IMG/VR virus record: IMGVR_UViG_2890725172_000001
Coordinates: 32,001 to 96,000 of that record
DNA from: a virus
Lineage: Duplodnaviria; Caudoviricetes
Reading direction: 5' to 3' (one strand)
Length of the DNA: 64,000 bases
The position numbers and the translations under genes were made by a program. The notes under the pieces were generated by a model that was not told the DNA's origin, searched no databases, and saw only the letters and a program-made list of their open reading frames with translations. Below, in pieces: positions 1 to 47,901 of the stretch. The first letter of the stretch is position 1; every line of letters begins with the position of its first letter.

Positions 1-240
1 ATGCTCTACGAGCCGAACTACGCCAACCCCGGTGCCGGGCCGATAAAGCGTCAGGTGGTTCTGATGCTCCCCTGGGATGAGGCGAGTCGCCTCGTCATCG
101 ATATCACACGGCTGATCGTGGAGGATTCGAGTGGCGTCTAGATCTCAGGCGATGTTACTTGATCTGATCGAGAGGATCATCCGGGACATCCTCCGTAGTC
201 GTCAGCGCCGAAATTCCCGACAGAAAAGGAGAGGAGACTC

Positions 241-5780: not shown

Positions 5781-6060
5781 CGAGAAGAAGAAGTACACCA
5801 CGGTCGCCGGATCCGAATTCGACATGGCGTTCACGGTGGTGGTCCGCGTCAGGCAGACGGACGTGACGGGAGTCGACCGTCCGCATTACGAGATCGCGCA
5901 AGCGGCCCTGAATCACTTCAAGCACGCCCGGACCCTTCAGGTCGCGGCCCGCGCCGGAGAGAACATGCACCACGCCGGTTTCTACGAGATCGAGACGGTC
6001 GCGGTCCGCGCGGTTCAATTCCTTGATCTTCGGCGCGAGCTCCGAGAGGACGGGATGTAA
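5773..6060 (+). CDS. hypothetical protein
   Basis: ORF overlapping previous stop. Confidence 0.6.
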   Translation: MSDEKKKYTTVAGSEFDMAFTVVVRVRQTDVTGVDRPHYEIAQAALNHFKHARTLQVAARAGENMHHAGFYEIETVAVRAVQFLDLRRELREDGM

Positions 6061-6064
6061 TTAC

Positions 6065-6418
6065 ATGGGTAAGGACCTGAGAAAGGACGCCGACGACTAC
6101 GCCCACGACTTCGTCGCGATCCTGAAGGAACGTATTCCCATTCTTCGTAGCGACGGTGGCTTGGCTCGGACCCTTCGCGATGCGGTGGAGAAGCACTACC
6201 TCGATCCCAACCCTGATCCTGACGCCATTATCGCCCTTCCCGAAGGCGGGTACGGCGTGTGGCAGGTAAGGACATTGCTGGAGGACGACGATAAACGACG
6301 TCTGAAAGTACTGGCTCAGGACTCAGAGGGCTGGCCGGTGCGACATGCTGACGAGCGCTACCTCAACGACGAGCTCGCGTATCTATGGAGCAAGATCCGA
6401 TCGGACGATCCGACGTGA
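6065..6418 (+). CDS. hypothetical protein
   Basis: ORF; start re-called at ATG 6065. Confidence 0.6.
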   Translation: MGKDLRKDADDYAHDFVAILKERIPILRSDGGLARTLRDAVEKHYLDPNPDPDAIIALPEGGYGVWQVRTLLEDDDKRRLKVLAQDSEGWPVRHADERYLNDELAYLWSKIRSDDPT

Positions 6419-17359: not shown

Positions 17360-17647
17360 ATGGATTTCACGGATCTTGAAACATCTCTCCAGATGGAGAA
17401 GGTCAAGTACACCAAGGAAGAACTCAGGGACGGCACTCAGCTCACGGTGCCCGCGCGAGACGACGTGGACATCATCATCACGGCGTACGACCGGCACGCA
17501 GAGGAAGGGCTGAAGTACCACATCGCCTGCTTCTGGGACGGCGGGGTGGAAGCGGTACCAGTAGCGATCATGAGCAATGTGAAGATGCTGGCCCGCTACG
17601 TGAGCAGCCTGATCGACGACGACACCCTCGACCACTGGATGGACTAG
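17360..17647 (+). CDS. hypothetical protein
   Basis: ATG 17360 after AAAGGAG. Confidence 0.6.
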   Translation: MDFTDLETSLQMEKVKYTKEELRDGTQLTVPARDDVDIIITAYDRHAEEGLKYHIACFWDGGVEAVPVAIMSNVKMLARYVSSLIDDDTLDHWMD

Positions 17648-17649
17648 CC

Positions 17650-17952
17650 ATGGAAACTGACTACAAACCCGGCGACGAGCCGATTCCCATCGGCTCTGTC
17701 GTCGAGTACTTCGGCAGTCCAAGCCCTGGTCGATATCGGGTCGACGACCACGCCGACCCGGCCAAGCATCCCTTCCCTCAAGTCTTCAGGGAAACGGACA
17801 TGGACAAGGCCTATCCGGACAGGACTGCCTACCATCTGTGGCCAGTTGGAGTACCACACAAGATAGGTAATCGACACCGCTCGGTTAGCTGGGTGCGGCG
17901 CACGTCCTTCACCGTGATCTCACGGCCGACAAAAAGCAGCAGCACTTCTTGA
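17650..17952 (+). CDS. hypothetical protein
   Basis: 100-aa ORF ending just before the terminator. Confidence 0.6.
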   Translation: METDYKPGDEPIPIGSVVEYFGSPSPGRYRVDDHADPAKHPFPQVFRETDMDKAYPDRTAYHLWPVGVPHKIGNRHRSVSWVRRTSFTVISRPTKSSSTS

Positions 17953-17957
17953 GATGT

Positions 17958-17999
17958 AAAAGCCCCCTCTCCAGCCAATTGGCTGGAGAGGGGGCTTTT
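17958..17999. terminator. bidirectional terminator, perfect 42-bp palindrome
   Basis: AAAAGCCCCCTCTCCAGCCAATTGGCTGGAGAGGGGGCTTTT between convergent units. Confidence 0.9.
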
Positions 18000-19275: not shown

Positions 19276-19322
19276 GTAAAACTTAGCAGGCGTCGATCAT
19301 CCGACGCATCTGATTTACGGCG

Positions 19323-19336
19323 AGGTATCGATACCT
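19323..19336. promoter_or_regulatory. palindromic motif AGGTATCGATACCT (copy 1)
   Basis: Also at 40383-40396 (exact) and 47284-47297 (1 mismatch). Confidence 0.6.
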
Positions 19337-33010: not shown

Positions 33011-33040
33011 TTGTGAATTGTGGGGGTGATGCTGTAATGT
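33011..33040 (+). promoter_or_regulatory. putative sigma70-type promoter for sRNA/tRNA-Pro
   Basis: TTGTGA-18 nt-TAATGT. Confidence 0.45.
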
Positions 33041-33046
33041 CGAACA

Positions 33047-33115
33047 CAGCATCACCTCCTCTCGTTCTACGGTGCTAAACCTCCCGAGCTGAGACTAGGC
33101 GGCTCGGGAGGACCA
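33047..33115 (+). ncRNA. candidate sRNA: anti-SD loop plus 12-bp hairpin ending ACCA
   Basis: AGCATC/GGTGCT stem enclosing ACCTCCTCTC; CCTCCCGAGCTG/CGGCTCGGGAGG followed by ACCA. Confidence 0.4.
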
Positions 33116-33116
33116 T

Positions 33117-33193
33117 CCGGGTGTAGCGTAATTTGGTTGAGCGCGCCTGCTTTGGGAGCAGGAGATTTGCAGGTTCAAATCCTGCCGTCCGGA
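33117..33193 (+). tRNA. tRNA-Pro(TGG)
   Basis: C1:G72, A73, loop TT TGG GA, T-loop TTCAAAT. Confidence 0.9.
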
Positions 33194-33196
33194 CGG

Positions 33197-33226
33197 GAAG
33201 CCCCCGTGCAATTGCACGGGGGCTTC
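33197..33226. terminator. perfect 30-bp palindrome, convergent terminator
   Basis: GAAGCCCCCGTGCAATTGCACGGGGGCTTC between tRNA-Pro and RNR stop. Confidence 0.8.
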
Positions 33227-33238
33227 ATCTATTTCCGG

Positions 33239-36028: not shown

Positions 36029-38038
36029 TTACTTGGCTTCATTCCAGGATTGGACGATGTGAATGTCGACGGTGAGAGGGACACTGATCCGCTCTTGGAT
36101 GCCGGGGCCGATCATGGCGTCGCGCAGCAGCTCGGCGACCATGTCGGCGACCTCGTCGCGGGCCTCGATTACCAGCTCGTCGTGGATGGTGAGGATGAGG
36201 CGGGCGGAGTCGTCCAGGCCGCGCTCGCGCAGGGCGCGACGGATGCGGATCATGGCGAGCTTGATGAGGTCGGCCGCGCTGCCTTGGATGAGGCTGTTGA
36301 CGGCCTGGCGCTCGGCGCGGGAGCGGTATTCGCTGTCGTAGGAGTTGAGATCGCGTAGACGGCGCTTGCGGCCGATCAGGGTCCGGATGAAGGGGACGGG
36401 GCCCCGGCTGCGAGCGACCTTGAGGATCTTGGCCTTGAGCTTGTGGACCTCGGGGAACTGCTGACCATGCTCGGCGAGCATTTGCTTGGCGAAGGTCAGA
36501 GAGATGCCCGCCTGGGTGGCGACGGTCTTGGGGCCCGCTCCGAAAACGATCGCGAAGTTGATCGTTTTGCCGATGGTTCTCTGTTCTTTGGTGACCTGGT
36601 CGAGCGGAACGCCGAAGATGGCGGCGGCGGTGATCGTGTGCGGATCGTGGCCTTCGTGGAAGCCTTCGAAGAGTTTGCCGCCTCCGGCGAAGTGCGCCAG
36701 CACGACCAACTCAATTTGGCCGAGGTCGCCCACCACGAGCTTCCAGCCGTCCGGCGCGGTGTAGATTCCTCGGATCTTCTTGCCGGATTCGCTGCGGGTG
36801 GGGATGTTCTGAAGGTTGGGGCCGTAGCTGCTCCACCGGCCGGTGACGGTGCCGTGGGGGTCGAGCGTGGTGTAGACGCGGGGGCCGGTCTCCGACTCAA
36901 AGATGATGCAAGGCTTCTTCGGGTCGTCCTCGATCCCGAGGTAGCCGTCCACGTAGGTGGACAGGAGTTTGACCGACTCCTGGTAGCGGAGGATGGCCTG
37001 GGCGACCTTGTTGCTCGGGTATTCCTTGAGCGTGTCGGCGTCGGTGCTGTAGTCGGTGATCAGCAGCGGTTCGCCGCGTTTGGCCTTCTTCTCGCCGCCG
37101 TCCGTCAACTTCTTAGGTCTCAGGCCCTGGCAGCCCTCGGCCTTGGGACCGAAAAGGATGTTGGCCTTCTGCTGGCTGCTGCCGACGTTGAACAGTTGCC
37201 CGGCGGCGGCGTAGACGGCGGCCTCACGCTCTTCCACCTCAATGGCCAGGTCGACGCGCAGCTGCTGGAGCCAGGGCACCAGGACGGGTGCTCCATGGCT
37301 GAGCATGTCGATGATGACCTGCTCAAGCAGGTCGTTCTCCATGCGCTGGGCGTCGTCGAGGCGTTCGTGGGCGATGGCGTCTCGCCAGCGCCGGTACAGC
37401 AGCCAGGTGAACTTGGAGTCCAGGCGGGCGTACTCGGCGACCTTGGAGAAGGGGAACTTCTCCACGCACTTACCGACGCCTTCCTTGTCGTAGTCGACGC
37501 GGTAGACGCGCTTGGTGGTGGGTTTGAGGCCGGTGCGCTCGTTCTCGTCGAGCAGCCAGGCGATCTGCCTGGTGTCGGCGTACGGCGGTGCTGCCGGGGC
37601 GGGCAGGTACTTCGCGGTTGAGATGACGTCGAAGGGGAGGTTGTGCGCGACCTTGGTGTGGTCGGGGCTGTTGAACAGGGGCCAGAGCTTCTCGAAAACC
37701 ACGTGTCGGCGGAGCTGCGGTGGCGGAGGTTCCCAGATGGGGTGGCGGTAGTGACGGGTCTTACCGTCTTTGCCGACCTTGGGGATCTTCTCTTCGCCGA
37801 TGATCTTGTCGCCGATGGGGTGGCCCATGGGGATCGCGACGGCCATGCCGTGGCTGGCCAGTGATAGCCAGGTCACCTCGTTCTGGGTGGGCACGCCTCG
37901 GTGGTCGCCTGTGGTTTCGACATCGAAGGCGAAGGCGTCTTGCCGCTTCAGATAGGAGACGACGTCGTCGAGCTGGCCCTCCGTCAGAATCGTGGAGGAG
38001 GGGAACACGTGATCTCTTGTGACGTGAGCCCCGGTCAC
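36029..38038 (-). CDS. polA: family A DNA polymerase with 3'-5' exonuclease
   Basis: FDVET, HN..FD, TGR.SS..PNLQNIP, D.GQIEL..LAH, K..NF...FG, N..IQGSAAD, IHDEL; exact start uncertain. Confidence 0.95.
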   Translation of the reverse strand: MTGAHVTRDHVFPSSTILTEGQLDDVVSYLKRQDAFAFDVETTGDHRGVPTQNEVTWLSLASHGMAVAIPMGHPIGDKIIGEEKIPKVGKDGKTRHYRHPIWEPPPPQLRRHVVFEKLWPLFNSPDHTKVAHNLPFDVISTAKYLPAPAAPPYADTRQIAWLLDENERTGLKPTTKRVYRVDYDKEGVGKCVEKFPFSKVAEYARLDSKFTWLLYRRWRDAIAHERLDDAQRMENDLLEQVIIDMLSHGAPVLVPWLQQLRVDLAIEVEEREAAVYAAAGQLFNVGSSQQKANILFGPKAEGCQGLRPKKLTDGGEKKAKRGEPLLITDYSTDADTLKEYPSNKVAQAILRYQESVKLLSTYVDGYLGIEDDPKKPCIIFESETGPRVYTTLDPHGTVTGRWSSYGPNLQNIPTRSESGKKIRGIYTAPDGWKLVVGDLGQIELVVLAHFAGGGKLFEGFHEGHDPHTITAAAIFGVPLDQVTKEQRTIGKTINFAIVFGAGPKTVATQAGISLTFAKQMLAEHGQQFPEVHKLKAKILKVARSRGPVPFIRTLIGRKRRLRDLNSYDSEYRSRAERQAVNSLIQGSAADLIKLAMIRIRRALRERGLDDSARLILTIHDELVIEARDEVADMVAELLRDAMIGPGIQERISVPLTVDIHIVQSWNEAK

Positions 38039-38076
38039 GGGGCGGGGGGCAGGACCCGTGACCGGGGCTCGTTTTT
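38026..38076 (+). terminator. 16-bp inverted repeat with T-tract on + strand
   Basis: GAGCCCCGGTCACGGG/CCCGTGACCGGGGCTC then GTTTTT. Confidence 0.6.
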
Positions 38077-40311: not shown

Positions 40312-41910
40312 TCAACTACTCTCTGTGAGAGCGCCTCTGACGTGCGCGGATAGGCTGATTACGTCGTTGTCGAGGCCTCCGGAGGTATCGATACCTTCGC
40401 CGTCGATCGATGCATCGGCTACACGAGTTTTAAAACTCAGGGCGTCGAAGGCCCTCTCCTCGATCGTCCCGGGGGTGACGAGGTCGATCACAGCCACCTG
40501 ATCGTGCTTGGACGACGCCCGTACGTGACGGGCTGAGATCTGGACATACTGCCCGTGCGATCTTGGGGCGTCGTAGTGGATCAGGTGTGTCGCCTCGGGC
40601 AGGTCGAGGCCGTAGGCGCCCGCGTGGCTCATCAGCAGCAGGCGGCAGTCCGGGTCGAACTTGAACTCGTCGATGAGCTGCTGGCGCTTGGCCAGCGACG
40701 TGATCTCGCCGGAGTAGATGACCGACCGGTGCGAGGGGAAGGCCCCGGCAATCAGGTCCAGCATGTGGACATACCTGGACACGATGATGATTTTGTGCTC
40801 AGGCATGTCCAGTAGCGGGATGACCCGGCGCCGGAGCTCGTCGAGCTTGGGCTGCATGTGAAGGTCGGTTACCGGCGCCAACCGGCCGCTGGCGACGATC
40901 TTGAGGGCGTAGGCGTTGGTGCCGCGCTCGGCCGCCCGGACCACCAGCAGAGGGTGGCAGAGCAGCATGCTGATCGTGGTATGGATCGCCTGCACCTTTC
41001 CGGCCCCGACCGCGTCCGACTCGCCGCCGTAGTAGGCCTCCGGGTCGAAATCGCCTGGGTCGGCGAGGTTGTTCAGCTCGGCGGCAAGGTCATGGAGGAC
41101 GTCCTCGTAGACCGTGCGCAGGGCGGGGGTTATGGGGGCCAGCCAGCGTTCGTGGACAACGGAGGGCATGTACGGGGCCACGTCCGGGTCTGACTGGCGT
41201 TTGCGGTAGGAGATCTCCAGCCACTTGCGCCGGAACGTCGCCAGGTTCACGTACCGCAGGACCCTGCCCCAGCGGTTGCGGCGGACGAAGCTGTCTTCGA
41301 AGTCCCGGTAAGTGCCGAAATGACCGGGGGCGACCCACTCGCTGATGGCCAGCGCTTCTTCGAGCCGGTTTTCCACGGGGGTTCCTGTCAGGCCGATCCG
41401 GTAGGGCGTCTGAAGCCTGCGTAAGGCCTTGGCGCGCTTGGACTTCCAGCCCTTGAGCACGCTCACCTCGTCGATGATCAGCAAGGCGTCGGGGATGCCT
41501 TTCTTGATCTTCCGGGCGTTGCTGGCCACGAAGTCGTGGGTGGCCAGGATGTAGTCGGTCTGGTTGGTGATGGCCTCGTCCAGCAGCCGGGCCTTGACCG
41601 TGGGCGAGCCGTCGATGATGACGCCCCACTCCTTGTCAGGCCACAGGGTCCTCTTGCCATCGCGGCTGACGCGGACGCTGCATGAGACGTCGGTGGTCTC
41701 GGCGATGGCCTGACCCCACTGGGTGAGCAGGGCCTTGGGGACGGCGATGATGACGGTGGTGACCAGGCCCTCGGCCAGCAGGTATTCGGCGCACGCCAGT
41801 GCGGTGACGGTCTTGCCGACTCCCATCTCCATGGTGAGCAGCAGTCGGCCGTGGGCGGTGAACTGTGCGAGTGCGGGGGTTTGGTAGTCGCGTAGATCAA
41901 CAGTGAGCAA
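40312..41910 (-). CDS. SNF2-family helicase
   Basis: EMGVGKT, IIDE, LTGTPVEN, GAYGLDL, TIEE. Confidence 0.85.
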   Translation of the reverse strand: MLTVDLRDYQTPALAQFTAHGRLLLTMEMGVGKTVTALACAEYLLAEGLVTTVIIAVPKALLTQWGQAIAETTDVSCSVRVSRDGKRTLWPDKEWGVIIDGSPTVKARLLDEAITNQTDYILATHDFVASNARKIKKGIPDALLIIDEVSVLKGWKSKRAKALRRLQTPYRIGLTGTPVENRLEEALAISEWVAPGHFGTYRDFEDSFVRRNRWGRVLRYVNLATFRRKWLEISYRKRQSDPDVAPYMPSVVHERWLAPITPALRTVYEDVLHDLAAELNNLADPGDFDPEAYYGGESDAVGAGKVQAIHTTISMLLCHPLLVVRAAERGTNAYALKIVASGRLAPVTDLHMQPKLDELRRRVIPLLDMPEHKIIIVSRYVHMLDLIAGAFPSHRSVIYSGEITSLAKRQQLIDEFKFDPDCRLLLMSHAGAYGLDLPEATHLIHYDAPRSHGQYVQISARHVRASSKHDQVAVIDLVTPGTIEERAFDALSFKTRVADASIDGEGIDTSGGLDNDVISLSAHVRGALTESS

Positions 41911-44933: not shown

Positions 44934-45919
44934 GTGTTTTTGTCCTGATTTGATGCTTTGTCGTAGAGGGTGAGATCCTCGGCTGTGACACCCCATCGAT
45001 CGAGGGCTGCCTGGCTGAAGGGGTCTTCGCGGGAGACCAGCGCCTTGGAGGCCAGCTGCATCAGCGGGGCACGCCGGTAGATGAAGTCCACCCAGGGAAC
45101 GAAGCCGGGCCTGGGGCCTTCCTTCACGTAGGCGTTGATCATGGCTTTGATCTGCGCGGCGGTGAGGGGGTGCTCTCCAGACATCCACGAGCGCAACTTC
45201 TTCACCATGGCGGTGAACACGATTGCGTCGGGGACCTTCAGGGCTTCGCGGCCAGCCGGGGTGAGCAGGAGCTGCTCTTTGAAGTAGAAGACCAGATGCC
45301 CGGCGTCGTTCTGCGGGGCCGGAGTCGGCTCAGGATCTTCACGGAAGGCGTCGGCGGCATCAAGGCCGTCATCGTCGTTCTTCCGCTGTGTTGACGATCG
45401 GCGGGCCTGAGTTCTGGGGGTGGTTCTTGCCGAGTTCTTTTCAGCCGCCGGAGGCGCGCTGAAAAATTGGTTAGAAGGTAGTTGGTTATATGTATTTGGT
45501 TCGGGCGACATTTTGTCCCCCTCATCCCGGACAAATTGTCCCCCCTCTTCCGGACAATTTGTCCTGGGGGGGCGACAATTTGTCTGGACGACATCCTCGC
45601 CCGTCTCCTGATCGAAGATCAGCTTCCACTCCTCCCGGGGGAGGATTCGCCGGGAGACGGAGGGGTACTTGCGGGTGCGCTCTGGCACCTCGTCCTCCGG
45701 GACCGTCTCGATGATGTTGAGTCCTTCGAGCGCCTTGATGGCCCGCTGGACGCTCTTCTCAGACGATCGAGTGTCTCTGGACATCCGATGATTCGACAGG
45801 CAGACGATGCGGTCGTCATGGTTGGCGCTGTCGGCCAGGTCGCGCAGGAGTAGGAGGGTGACGGCGGTCAGGGCCGCAGGCGCGTAGCGGCGCACCTCGG
45901 CTTCGATCTCTCTGGCCAT
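44930..45919 (-). CDS. replication initiator (N-terminal HTH, lambda O-like)
   Basis: LAD.AN......S..RMS.....SEKSVQRAIKALE; upstream of dnaC-dnaB-primase; contains iterons. Confidence 0.75.
   Translation of the reverse strand: MAREIEAEVRRYAPAALTAVTLLLLRDLADSANHDDRIVCLSNHRMSRDTRSSEKSVQRAIKALEGLNIIETVPEDEVPERTRKYPSVSRRILPREEWKLIFDQETGEDVVQTNCRPPRTNCPEEGGQFVRDEGDKMSPEPNTYNQLPSNQFFSAPPAAEKNSARTTPRTQARRSSTQRKNDDDGLDAADAFREDPEPTPAPQNDAGHLVFYFKEQLLLTPAGREALKVPDAIVFTAMVKKLRSWMSGEHPLTAAQIKAMINAYVKEGPRPGFVPWVDFIYRRAPLMQLASKALVSREDPFSQAALDRWGVTAEDLTLYDKASNQDKNT
45507..45584. repeat. four iterons GACAWWTTGTC (putative origin)
   Basis: Copies at 45507, 45530, 45553, 45574; AT-rich tract 45461-45500. Confidence 0.8.
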
Positions 45920-45971
45920 TGAGCTCCGTGATGGGTTGTTGAACTAGTTAAGGAACTGCTAGCGTTCATCG

Positions 45972-46089
45972 CGCATCACCCAAACGCGACAAGTCATCTT
46001 GGCCGCGTCCCCGAGGGTCGGATGCATGCTGGAGATGTGCCCCGGAGATCGTTAACCGTCGTCGCGTTCACTCCGGGGCACATCTTTTT
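45972..46089 (+). ncRNA. candidate antisense (counter-transcribed) RNA in initiator leader
   Basis: TTGTTG-18-TAGCGT promoter with TGn extension, two hairpins, second a perfect 15-bp stem with T-tract. Confidence 0.5.
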
Positions 46090-46096
46090 CCCCAGG

Positions 46097-47215
46097 TCAG
46101 GACGCCAGAAGGTGCTCGGCCTGCTCCTTGGGGACGATCTTCCGCGTCAGCCCACGGCCGGGCTTGCCCTTCCCCGCGAGCTTCACGATCTCACCGAGTT
46201 CATTGACTAGTACGGAAACCTCTCCAGCCTTCGCGCGGGTGCGGCCGACCGGCTTGGGGGGCTCGGTCTCGGCGCTGGCGGATTCGATGGTGAGCTGCTC
46301 CGGCTCCGGCTCCGGCGTCACCTTCTCCCGCCACTCCTGCGCGATGTCGCGGAGGTCCACCACGTCGCGGTAGTGACCGAGCCAGTGGGTCAGCGGGCGC
46401 AGACGAGTCGGCTGGCCATGCGCGGAAGCGTTGGCGATGTCGGTGTGCAGGAAGTGGTCGTGGGCCAGTCGGAGCACTTCTGCCAGCTTGGGGATCTCGT
46501 CGGGTTCCCGCGTGGTGATGACGGCGGCGGGCAGGGCCTGGGCCTCGTCGGCGACCGGCTCGGCGGGCATGTCAGGGAGTGTCTGCTGAACGGCTTTTCC
46601 CGCCGGGTGTCTGTCCATGGCCTCGGCCAGGGCGGCGTCACGAGCCTCTTTGGTGATCTCTTCGGCGACGTTGATCTCCTCTTCGGGAGCGTCCTCCAAG
46701 TCGAAGACCAGCTCGTCGAGGCCGAGGGCGGCCAGTTCCAGGATCGTGATCCCAGCCTCCTGGGCGGCCAGCAGGAGGTCCTCGGTGTTGTCGTCCGGGG
46801 CCTCGTCGTCGGCGCCGAACGCCAGGATCACGTACGGAGTTCTTCCGTAGGTCTCCTGGTCCTCCTGGAGCAGGGCGATGAGGTTGTCGGTCATTCCGGC
46901 CTTGTCGGAGGTGATGCCCTCCTTGGCGCCCGCGATGAGCTGCTTGACCTTGCGGCTCTGGGTGGTGTGATCGGTGACGACGGAGTAGCCGGGGCCCTCG
47001 CTGCCGAGGTCGACGAGCAGATCGGCGGTGTACAGGACGGCCTTGGTGACCCAGTCGTCGGCGGCGGGCAGGTAGACCCAGGCGTCGGCCGGGTTGTCGG
47101 TGTTGACGCGCAGCCAGTCTTCGAGAAGGTCGTTCACCAGGTCGGTGCTGACAGCAGCGCCTCCGGCGACGACGACAGAGATCGGACCGGAGGCGGGCAT
47201 AGCTGAAGAAGACAC
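46097..47215 (-). CDS. acidic hypothetical protein
   Basis: 372-aa ORF, RBS GGAG. Confidence 0.7.
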   Translation of the reverse strand: MSSSAMPASGPISVVVAGGAAVSTDLVNDLLEDWLRVNTDNPADAWVYLPAADDWVTKAVLYTADLLVDLGSEGPGYSVVTDHTTQSRKVKQLIAGAKEGITSDKAGMTDNLIALLQEDQETYGRTPYVILAFGADDEAPDDNTEDLLLAAQEAGITILELAALGLDELVFDLEDAPEEEINVAEEITKEARDAALAEAMDRHPAGKAVQQTLPDMPAEPVADEAQALPAAVITTREPDEIPKLAEVLRLAHDHFLHTDIANASAHGQPTRLRPLTHWLGHYRDVVDLRDIAQEWREKVTPEPEPEQLTIESASAETEPPKPVGRTRAKAGEVSVLVNELGEIVKLAGKGKPGRGLTRKIVPKEQAEHLLAS

Positions 47216-47319
47216 AGTTGCTCCAGGGGAGGATGAGGTCGGTAACTGGTATTTAACCGACCCGAAAGCCTCGCTCCTAGGAGAGGTATCGATACTTGCT
47301 TAACTAGTTGAGGAACTCG

Positions 47320-47592: not shown

Positions 47593-47901
47593 TTAGTCCT
47601 TGACCAGCGTGTTCTTGACCGCCGTGGAGATGCCGGTGGGCTTGAGGAAGCCGAGATGGACGCCGACACCGGTCAGCGCGACCAGCAGCCAGGTCAGCAG
47701 CGCGGCGGTGAGATCGAAGGACGTGTTGAGGTCGAACGACCCCTTGAGTTCGGTGAGAAAGCCGGTCGCTCCGGACAGCACGGCCAGAACAAAGGCTCGG
47801 AATCCCGCGCCCCAGGACTGTTTGGTGACGAGGCCAGTAAGGATGGGAAGAACGGTTCCAATGGCAATCGCCAAAGCCATTGAGGCGTGAAGGGTAACCA
47901 C
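47593..47901 (-). CDS. holin-like protein
   Basis: Three TM segments, VLPILTGLVTK...H.G.LKPTG motif. Confidence 0.7.
   Translation of the reverse strand: MVTLHASMALAIAIGTVLPILTGLVTKQSWGAGFRAFVLAVLSGATGFLTELKGSFDLNTSFDLTAALLTWLLVALTGVGVHLGFLKPTGISTAVKNTLVKD

Follow-up and report, generated by a model that had tools for sequence, protein, structure and literature searches.

Small, highly structured counter-transcribed RNAs that lie opposite the upstream region of a replication initiator gene and end in a terminator hairpin are familiar from plasmids, with R1 CopA, pMV158 RNAII and the pT181/pIP501 type as examples. Temperate actinophages are known for repressor sites that occur in many copies, such as the conserved inverted repeats of phiC31 and the stoperators of L5. 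Small RNAs of actinophages have, to our knowledge, hardly been studied. In phage lambda, the promoter pO directs a short leftward RNA, oop, which starts just upstream of the initiator gene O, ends at the tO hairpin, is antisense to the upstream message and exerts an RNase III-dependent control (PMC5869508). The same promoter interferes with the rightward transcription that supplies O and P and activates the origin (PMC3985674).

A candidate for a comparable arrangement was examined in a 64,000-nt stretch of phage DNA, here called the window, which corresponds to positions 32001-96000 of the phage contig C45 (110,447 bp, 62 % GC). The genome carrying this contig has 8.3 Mb and a GC content of 70.6 %, and the host is taken to be a Herbidospora, of the actinomycete family Streptosporangiaceae, because a protein on the adjoining host contig is 84-92 % identical to Herbidospora species. 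A tyrosine integrase gene lies at the end of the element, assembly overlaps of 127 nt join both ends of C45 to host-like contigs (C73 and C106; 72-73 % GC), and GC content steps at both junctions. Taken together, these features indicate a temperate phage that is integrated, at least mostly, rather than a plasmid-like element. The preliminary description of this locus had likened it to a plasmid control region and had suggested looking for an extrachromosomal form; that check, once run, spoke for integration. The contig breaks at the ends of C45 may mean that the culture used for sequencing contained both integrated and excised copies. No tRNA was found at either junction (L005 1-1413; L007 14300-14447).

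The element encodes a tail sheath, baseplate wedge and hub, major head protein, portal and terminase, which indicates a 110-kb sheath-bearing phage of the myovirus type, and its earlier designation as a large myovirus is borne out by the sheath and baseplate genes. Between about position 17,600 of the window and the right end of C45, the genes lie essentially all on the minus strand, in the order structural genes, lysis genes with a holin, ORF372, a non-coding gap, the initiator gene (rep), a DnaC-like loader, DnaB and primase. The coordinates of all features are collected in Table 1.

Table 1. Positions of features in and around the gap upstream of the initiator gene and of related features elsewhere in the phage; numbering is that of the window unless C45, L005, L006 or L007 is named
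Feature	Position	Strand	Details
Tyrosine integrase	C45 145-1413		End of the element
Holin	47593-47901	-	Lysis genes
ORF372 (346 aa in the protein collection)	46097-47215	-	Stop codon 46097-46099, 8 nt past the T run
Gap	45920-46096		Between ORF372 and the initiator gene
Replication initiator (rep), lambda O-like, 329 aa	44930-45919	-	GGAG ribosome site 45924-45927
Four iterons, GACAWWTTGTCY	45507-45585		Inside the initiator gene; spacing 23, 23 and 21 bp
Promoter-like site	45936-45965	+	Points away from rep; TTGTTG 45936-45941, 18-nt spacer, TG 45957-45958, TAGCGT 45960-45965; extended -10 TGCTAGCGT
Predicted small RNA, ~118 nt	45972-46089	+	5' end placed from the -10, 3' end from the T run
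Hairpin 1	45973-46025		Arms GCAUC/GAUGC, ACCC/GGGU, ACGCG/CGCGU and CAAG/CUUG
Hairpin 2 and T run	46033-46089	+	Perfect 15-bp stem 46033-46047/46071-46085, 23-nt loop; T run 46085-46089
Loop/arm complement	46061-46068; 45983-45990		GTCGCGTT (hairpin 2 loop) and AACGCGAC (hairpin 1), exact reverse complements
29-codon frame	45995-46084	-	Behind GGGGA
Box copy at rep	45934-45957		Outer arms ~45928-45963; GGTT-GTTG-AACT / AGTT-AAGG-AACT; 1 mismatch to consensus
Second box copy	47294-47317		Head of ORF372
Third box copy, weaker	46197-46220		Inside ORF372
Other box copies	C45 8954 (L005 8954-8977); C45 11131 (L005 11131-11154); C45 20873 (L006 873-896); 14777-14800		As the three copies above, <=3 mismatches
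12-bp palindrome, GGTATCGATACC	19324-19335; 40384-40395; 47285-47296; L005 ~17738-17749		Four copies, one ending in T
Candidate early promoter	L006 1275-1283 (C45 21275)	+	Extended -10 TGTTATGGT
Late-promoter family, TGAnnTCTAnnnT	L007 2636-2648, 11526-11538 and 13157-13169	-	Follows an AT-rich tract
tRNA-Pro unit	33011-33236	+	Promoter-like match 33011-33040; tRNA-Pro 33117-33194
Three tandem units	L007 ~5790-6260	+	Extended -10 motifs TGCTAGGGT, TGGTAGAGT and TGATAAGTT
Reversed-tail hairpin	38026-38070		16-bp stem; GTTTTT on the + strand

The gene next to the gap had been named a replication initiator from the sequence alone, and this assignment held. The protein matched PHROG 270/345 and other families of replication-initiation and O-like proteins, with a weak HTH_36 match at residues 17-70 that falls below the Pfam cut-off, and the loader, helicase and primase genes downstream were identified by Pfam and PHROG matches. 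The four iterons lie 334-412 nt into the gene, compared with 348-432 nt for the four iterons of lambda in O, and they are read as the origin. The gene thus has an N-terminal DNA-binding domain, mid-gene iterons and a loader and helicase downstream, as expected of a lambda O-like initiator with an in-gene origin. An origin inside the 177-base gap was ruled out, since the iterons sit within rep. The gap might still act in replication at the level of DNA, as a single-strand initiation site or primosome-loading hairpin or as a cruciform by the origin; it is ~350 bp from the iterons, and its hairpins fold equally well as either strand. With the iteron signature inside rep, similar hairpins far from the origin, and a T run and promoter-like site that such an element would leave unexplained, this role is regarded as very improbable.

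On the plus strand of the gap, the promoter motifs given in the preliminary description (TTGTTG and TAGCGT at 18-nt spacing, with a TGn extension) could be read directly, hairpin 1 and its arms were reproduced by folding, and the perfect stem of hairpin 2, followed by a T run, was confirmed as an inverted repeat. The predicted RNA would fold into these two hairpins with a minimum free energy of -54.6 kcal/mol (z -4.7), and none of 200 dinucleotide shuffles was as stable. Hairpin 2 alone gave -33.3 kcal/mol (z -5.9 against dinucleotide shuffles). Perfect stems of >=15 bp number six across the 110-kb element, and every one of them is intergenic. The first T of the T run closes its stem, leaving a free TTTT that is followed by CCCC. 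Read on the minus strand, hairpin 2 has A5 before it and UCCAGCAU, without a U tract, after it, so that a GC-rich hairpin with an immediate U tract, as in canonical intrinsic terminators, is present on the plus strand only, with an atypical 23-nt loop. A simple scanner for sigma-70 promoters and terminators gave no match at the gap, owing to the weak -35 and to a hairpin 2 loop longer than its 8-nt limit. No Rfam family matched the gap region. A plus-strand ORF at 46022-46210 was considered as a gene and rejected on account of its flat codon-position GC.

In vitro, a hairpin without a U tract does not bring mycobacterial RNA polymerase to termination, even when NusA and NusG are present, but this polymerase copes with imperfect U tracts better than that of E. 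coli (PMC3993855). Given this rule and the one-sided U tail, minus-strand transcription would be expected to read through hairpin 2 into rep, and plus-strand transcription to stop at it. The orientation of hairpin tails was surveyed over C45 for perfect stems of >=9 bp. Tails follow the direction of the genes in both the left minus-strand block and the plus-strand block. Among the intergenic hairpins of the long right minus-strand block, five were scored as having a tail on the plus side only, one of which (at 17958) is bidirectional on inspection, as flanking A and T runs lengthen its stem; none had a tail on the minus side only, and two further hairpins were bidirectional. The survey indicates that tail orientation is not noise but carries meaning in this phage, and a plus-strand unit of promoter, hairpins and terminator is the most economical reading of it at the gap.

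The same hairpins also bear on a rival explanation, that no functional plus-strand RNA exists and that all features serve the minus strand. Hairpin 2 would then be a 3' stabiliser, a processing site or a leaky stop for the ORF372 message that also blocks stray antisense transcription, while hairpin 1 would be a 5' or intercistronic stem in the rep mRNA and the AT-rich box upstream of rep the operator and promoter of that gene. Hairpin 2 lies 11 nt beyond the ORF372 stop, and the other strong hairpins of the block likewise follow minus-strand stops, at 10-18 nt. Hairpin 1 gains stability as minus-strand RNA (-23.4 kcal/mol, compared with -19.5 as plus-strand RNA, three G-U pairs becoming C-A mismatches; z -2.7 and -2.05, respectively, against dinucleotide shuffles), which hints that the mRNA strand is under selection. 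The hairpin at 38026-38070, in a 49-nt gap between two minus-strand genes, has the shape of a counter-oriented terminator with the same reversed tail and leaves no room for a promoter. The last two points, as well as the large loop of hairpin 2 and its tail of four free U, count against a functional counter-oriented unit. The minus-strand explanation, for its part, does not account for a T5 run that adjoins the stem precisely on the opposite strand, and hairpins without U tracts failed to halt an actinobacterial polymerase in vitro (PMC3993855). Further evidence on both sides comes from the promoter-like site and its surroundings.

Overall counts of promoter motifs were not above shuffle expectation, and the evidence lies in their placement. 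On the plus strand of the 60-kb minus-strand block, the extended -10 pattern TGnTAnnnT occurs four times (45957, 69793, 69997 and 70147), and all four matches sit in two non-coding stretches, each followed by hairpins with a T tail. The pattern TTGNNN-16..18-TANNNT occurs twice on this strand of the block, at the rep site and 77 nt upstream of a genuine plus-strand tRNA-Pro gene with its own hairpin. From the tRNA-Pro unit and the placement of the motifs it follows that counter-oriented RNA genes with their own signals exist in the phage. The second non-coding stretch, a non-coding insert, holds three plus-strand extended -10 motifs, each followed by hairpins and a T-tailed hairpin. An extended -10 at 19280-19288 beside a tRNA array was rejected as support for this promoter class, its predicted start lying inside the first tRNA.

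The phage's own units resemble the one at rep in having an extended -10 or a -35/-10 pair, then hairpins and a T-tailed hairpin on the plus strand; they differ from it in sharing no sequence, in not lying beside an initiator and in having no operator box over the promoter. This raises the question of whether the unit at rep has nothing to do with that gene and is a moron-like small-RNA gene in its own right, acting in trans on host or phage messages; it would then belong to a set of at least five counter-oriented RNA units of the phage. The like-built units at the insert and around tRNA-Pro speak for it. Within the phage, however, the predicted RNA shows no complementarity beyond chance (best 17 nt, E 0.15), and its position at the initiator and the shared operator box would have to be coincidence. 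A purely trans-acting role is accordingly given little credence.

The promoter-like site overlaps a second element. A box with the consensus AGTT-N4-AACTAGTT-N4-AACT, that is, two abutting AGTT-N4-AACT units, forms a double palindrome of 24-36 bp whose outer arms are GTGAYGAGTT / AACTCRTCAC, and the copy at rep abuts the Shine-Dalgarno sequence (GGAG). Seven copies with <=3 mismatches were found in the 110-kb element, compared with ~1 in shuffles even at <=4 mismatches, and the 16-nt core gave seven matches where 0.38 were expected. ACTAGT sites were intergenic in eight of 10 cases, and most box copies precede a start codon by 0-80 nt, in one orientation or the other. The recurrent palindrome looks like an operator family and is probably bound by a phage regulator. 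It resembles the phiC31 and L5 sites as a short motif at many intergenic sites near gene starts in a temperate actinophage, and differs from them in sequence and in consisting of palindromic double sites. Scanning the operator pattern in public collections returned chance matches in unrelated genomes only.

Several further observations concern the boxes. Two of the genes behind box copies would be nearly leaderless. A 12-bp palindrome, GGTATCGATACC, is present in four copies. Two of these lie between genes, the first next to the operator box ahead of ORF372 and the second ahead of the tRNA array. The operator box at L006 873-896 lies ~400 bp upstream of the plus-strand extended -10 TGTTATGGT, which, in a long gene-free stretch before the plus-strand early operon, is a candidate early promoter.

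Since the late genes precede the replication genes on one and the same strand, the latter would need their own promoters near boxes, and the boxes may mark the early or middle promoters that these genes require. Both this requirement and the recurrence of the box directly upstream of other gene starts fit the explanation in which every feature serves the minus strand; the box itself could be the rep promoter, in which case the rep mRNA would not contain the hairpins, a possibility that weighs against the counter-oriented unit. Since the -35 and spacer of the plus-strand site are also a copy of a recurrent palindrome, they are not free evidence for a promoter, and part of the 'promoter' thus exists for another reason. 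The palindromic box occurs elsewhere without an adjacent -10, and at rep its outer arm on the side away from the gene leaves the consensus exactly at TGCTAGCGT. The minus-strand explanation gives no account of an extended -10 at precisely this point. A predicted operator covering the -35 and spacer of an outward promoter is the usual geometry for repression, and for the same reason the RNA unit would be switched by the regulator that binds the box.

On the minus strand of the gap, no TANNNT -10 hexamer is present, a further difficulty for an explanation that places the rep promoter there. A late-promoter family was recognized in the phage as TGAnnTCTAnnnT after an AT-rich tract; its three copies are all intergenic, ahead of late gene blocks, and are the only minus-strand matches in the element. 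The minus-strand sequence TGAACGCTAGCAG in the gap was considered as a further member and rejected, two conserved positions being wrong and the AT tract missing. With neither a TANNNT hexamer nor a late-promoter match in the gap, co-transcription of rep with ORF372 is favoured. Weighing these points with those from the hairpins and the box, an exclusively minus-strand function is considered a serious competitor, although an unlikely one.

ORF372 has good coding statistics (codon-position GC 0.73/0.43/0.86) and encodes an acidic orphan protein for which no Pfam or PHROG match and no homologue was found. Its N-terminal 160 residues resemble SLOG/YpsA/DprA-like phage proteins in language-model and structure look-ups, with low scores, so that a SLOG/DprA-like fold is offered as a lead only. 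ORF372 is probably the first gene of the replication module, not the last of the lysis cassette.

In the preliminary description, the RNA was held to control the initiator in the manner of plasmids, by a switch in the rep leader. Such a plasmid-type RNA would set initiator level and copy number through attenuation, block of a leader peptide or an 8-nt pairing between AACGCGAC and GTCGCGTT. The RNA would indeed be antisense to any read-through leader, and the two 8-mers were verified as an exact complement, with a duplex energy of -11.3 kcal/mol and a chance of 1-3 % in controls; having been picked after the fact, the pairing is suggestive only. A 29-codon minus-strand frame begins 13 nt past the ORF372 stop; it extends from the 5' arm of hairpin 2 as far as the apical loop of hairpin 1, and the predicted RNA would cover all of it. 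Other results do not agree with this model. The predicted RNA starts ~45 nt upstream of the rep Shine-Dalgarno sequence, so that neither an overlap with the ribosome site nor a coupling to the rep start region is seen. The leader switch likewise found no support, as no U-tailed hairpin that could act as an attenuator was found on the minus strand before rep, and the region between the box and the rep start codon lacks structure (z +1.1) and does not hide the ribosome site. The 29-codon frame ends 75 nt before rep, has a third-position GC of ~0.66 (hand count) compared with 0.75-0.89 in real minus-strand genes, and is probably not a gene. The locus resembles plasmid counter-transcribed RNAs in the predicted small structured RNA opposite the initiator's upstream region and its terminator hairpin; it differs in lying in an integrated prophage with an integrase at its end, in lacking a rep-start overlap, an attenuator and a coupled leader peptide, and in having no evident copy-number setting. 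Control of the plasmid type is judged improbable.

Relatives that might have tested these predictions by covariation or conservation were sought, and none close enough was present in the collections searched. Phage records held no similar DNA and no similar initiator, and nothing was found in a one-genome-per-species set, IMG/VR, JGI metagenomes or 60 relatives. In 400 genomes of the host family, only weak N-terminal matches were obtained. An exhaustive protein search returned 45 distant initiator relatives, the best with 39 % identity, the best two being from run assemblies. The gene upstream of one distant relative (L251/L252; 40 % identity over the N-terminus) is divergent, and a counter-oriented terminator is missing there. 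BRock-like Streptomyces phages, in which DnaB is ~31 % identical, have a different local gene order.

The preferred reading, held tentatively, is a functional counter-oriented unit like lambda pO/oop. A regulator-bound double-palindrome operator would sit against the rep ribosome site, and an extended -10 promoter overlapping it and directed away from rep would give rise to the two-hairpin RNA, ending at hairpin 2 in its U-tailed orientation. The target would be minus-strand transcripts that begin on the ORF372 side and cross the gap to enter rep. By pairing with the read-through transcript, the RNA could form a long duplex open to RNase III; alternatively, its synthesis could collide with oncoming polymerase. 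Either action would be expected to damp initiator expression and transcription into the origin.

In both phages, a counter-oriented unit, here with predicted transcription, lies just upstream of an O-type initiator gene with four in-gene iterons, points back at the preceding gene and is closed by a hairpin terminator. The two appear to share no sequence similarity, and the predicted RNA of ~118 nt is longer than oop, which has ~77 nt. The oop RNA overlaps cII by 52 nt, whereas the RNA described here would stop 8 nt before the upstream coding region and cover the untranslated gap alone. Moreover, the promoter-like site falls in the gap, under an operator box, rather than within the initiator gene, ORF372 does not resemble cII, and the setting is a 110-kb myovirus of an actinomycete.

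A wider proposal can be built on the preferred reading: an operator-controlled counter-transcript may gate a lambda-type initiator in an integrated actinobacterial myovirus, giving a plasmid-like negative feedback, as one of at least five units that form an antisense layer over the late and replication operon. This is put forward as speculation with a low probability. If the RNA is not real, the region would be an ordinary operator and hairpin boundary between two genes. Several candidate RNA units and a clear operator family are available for study in this phage. Should the RNA prove real, a large actinobacterial myovirus would repeat, without apparent sequence similarity, the lambda pO/oop arrangement, in which a small counter-transcript stands guard before an initiator gene with the origin inside it. 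A link between replication and transcription of this kind would then seem to be either convergent or very old.
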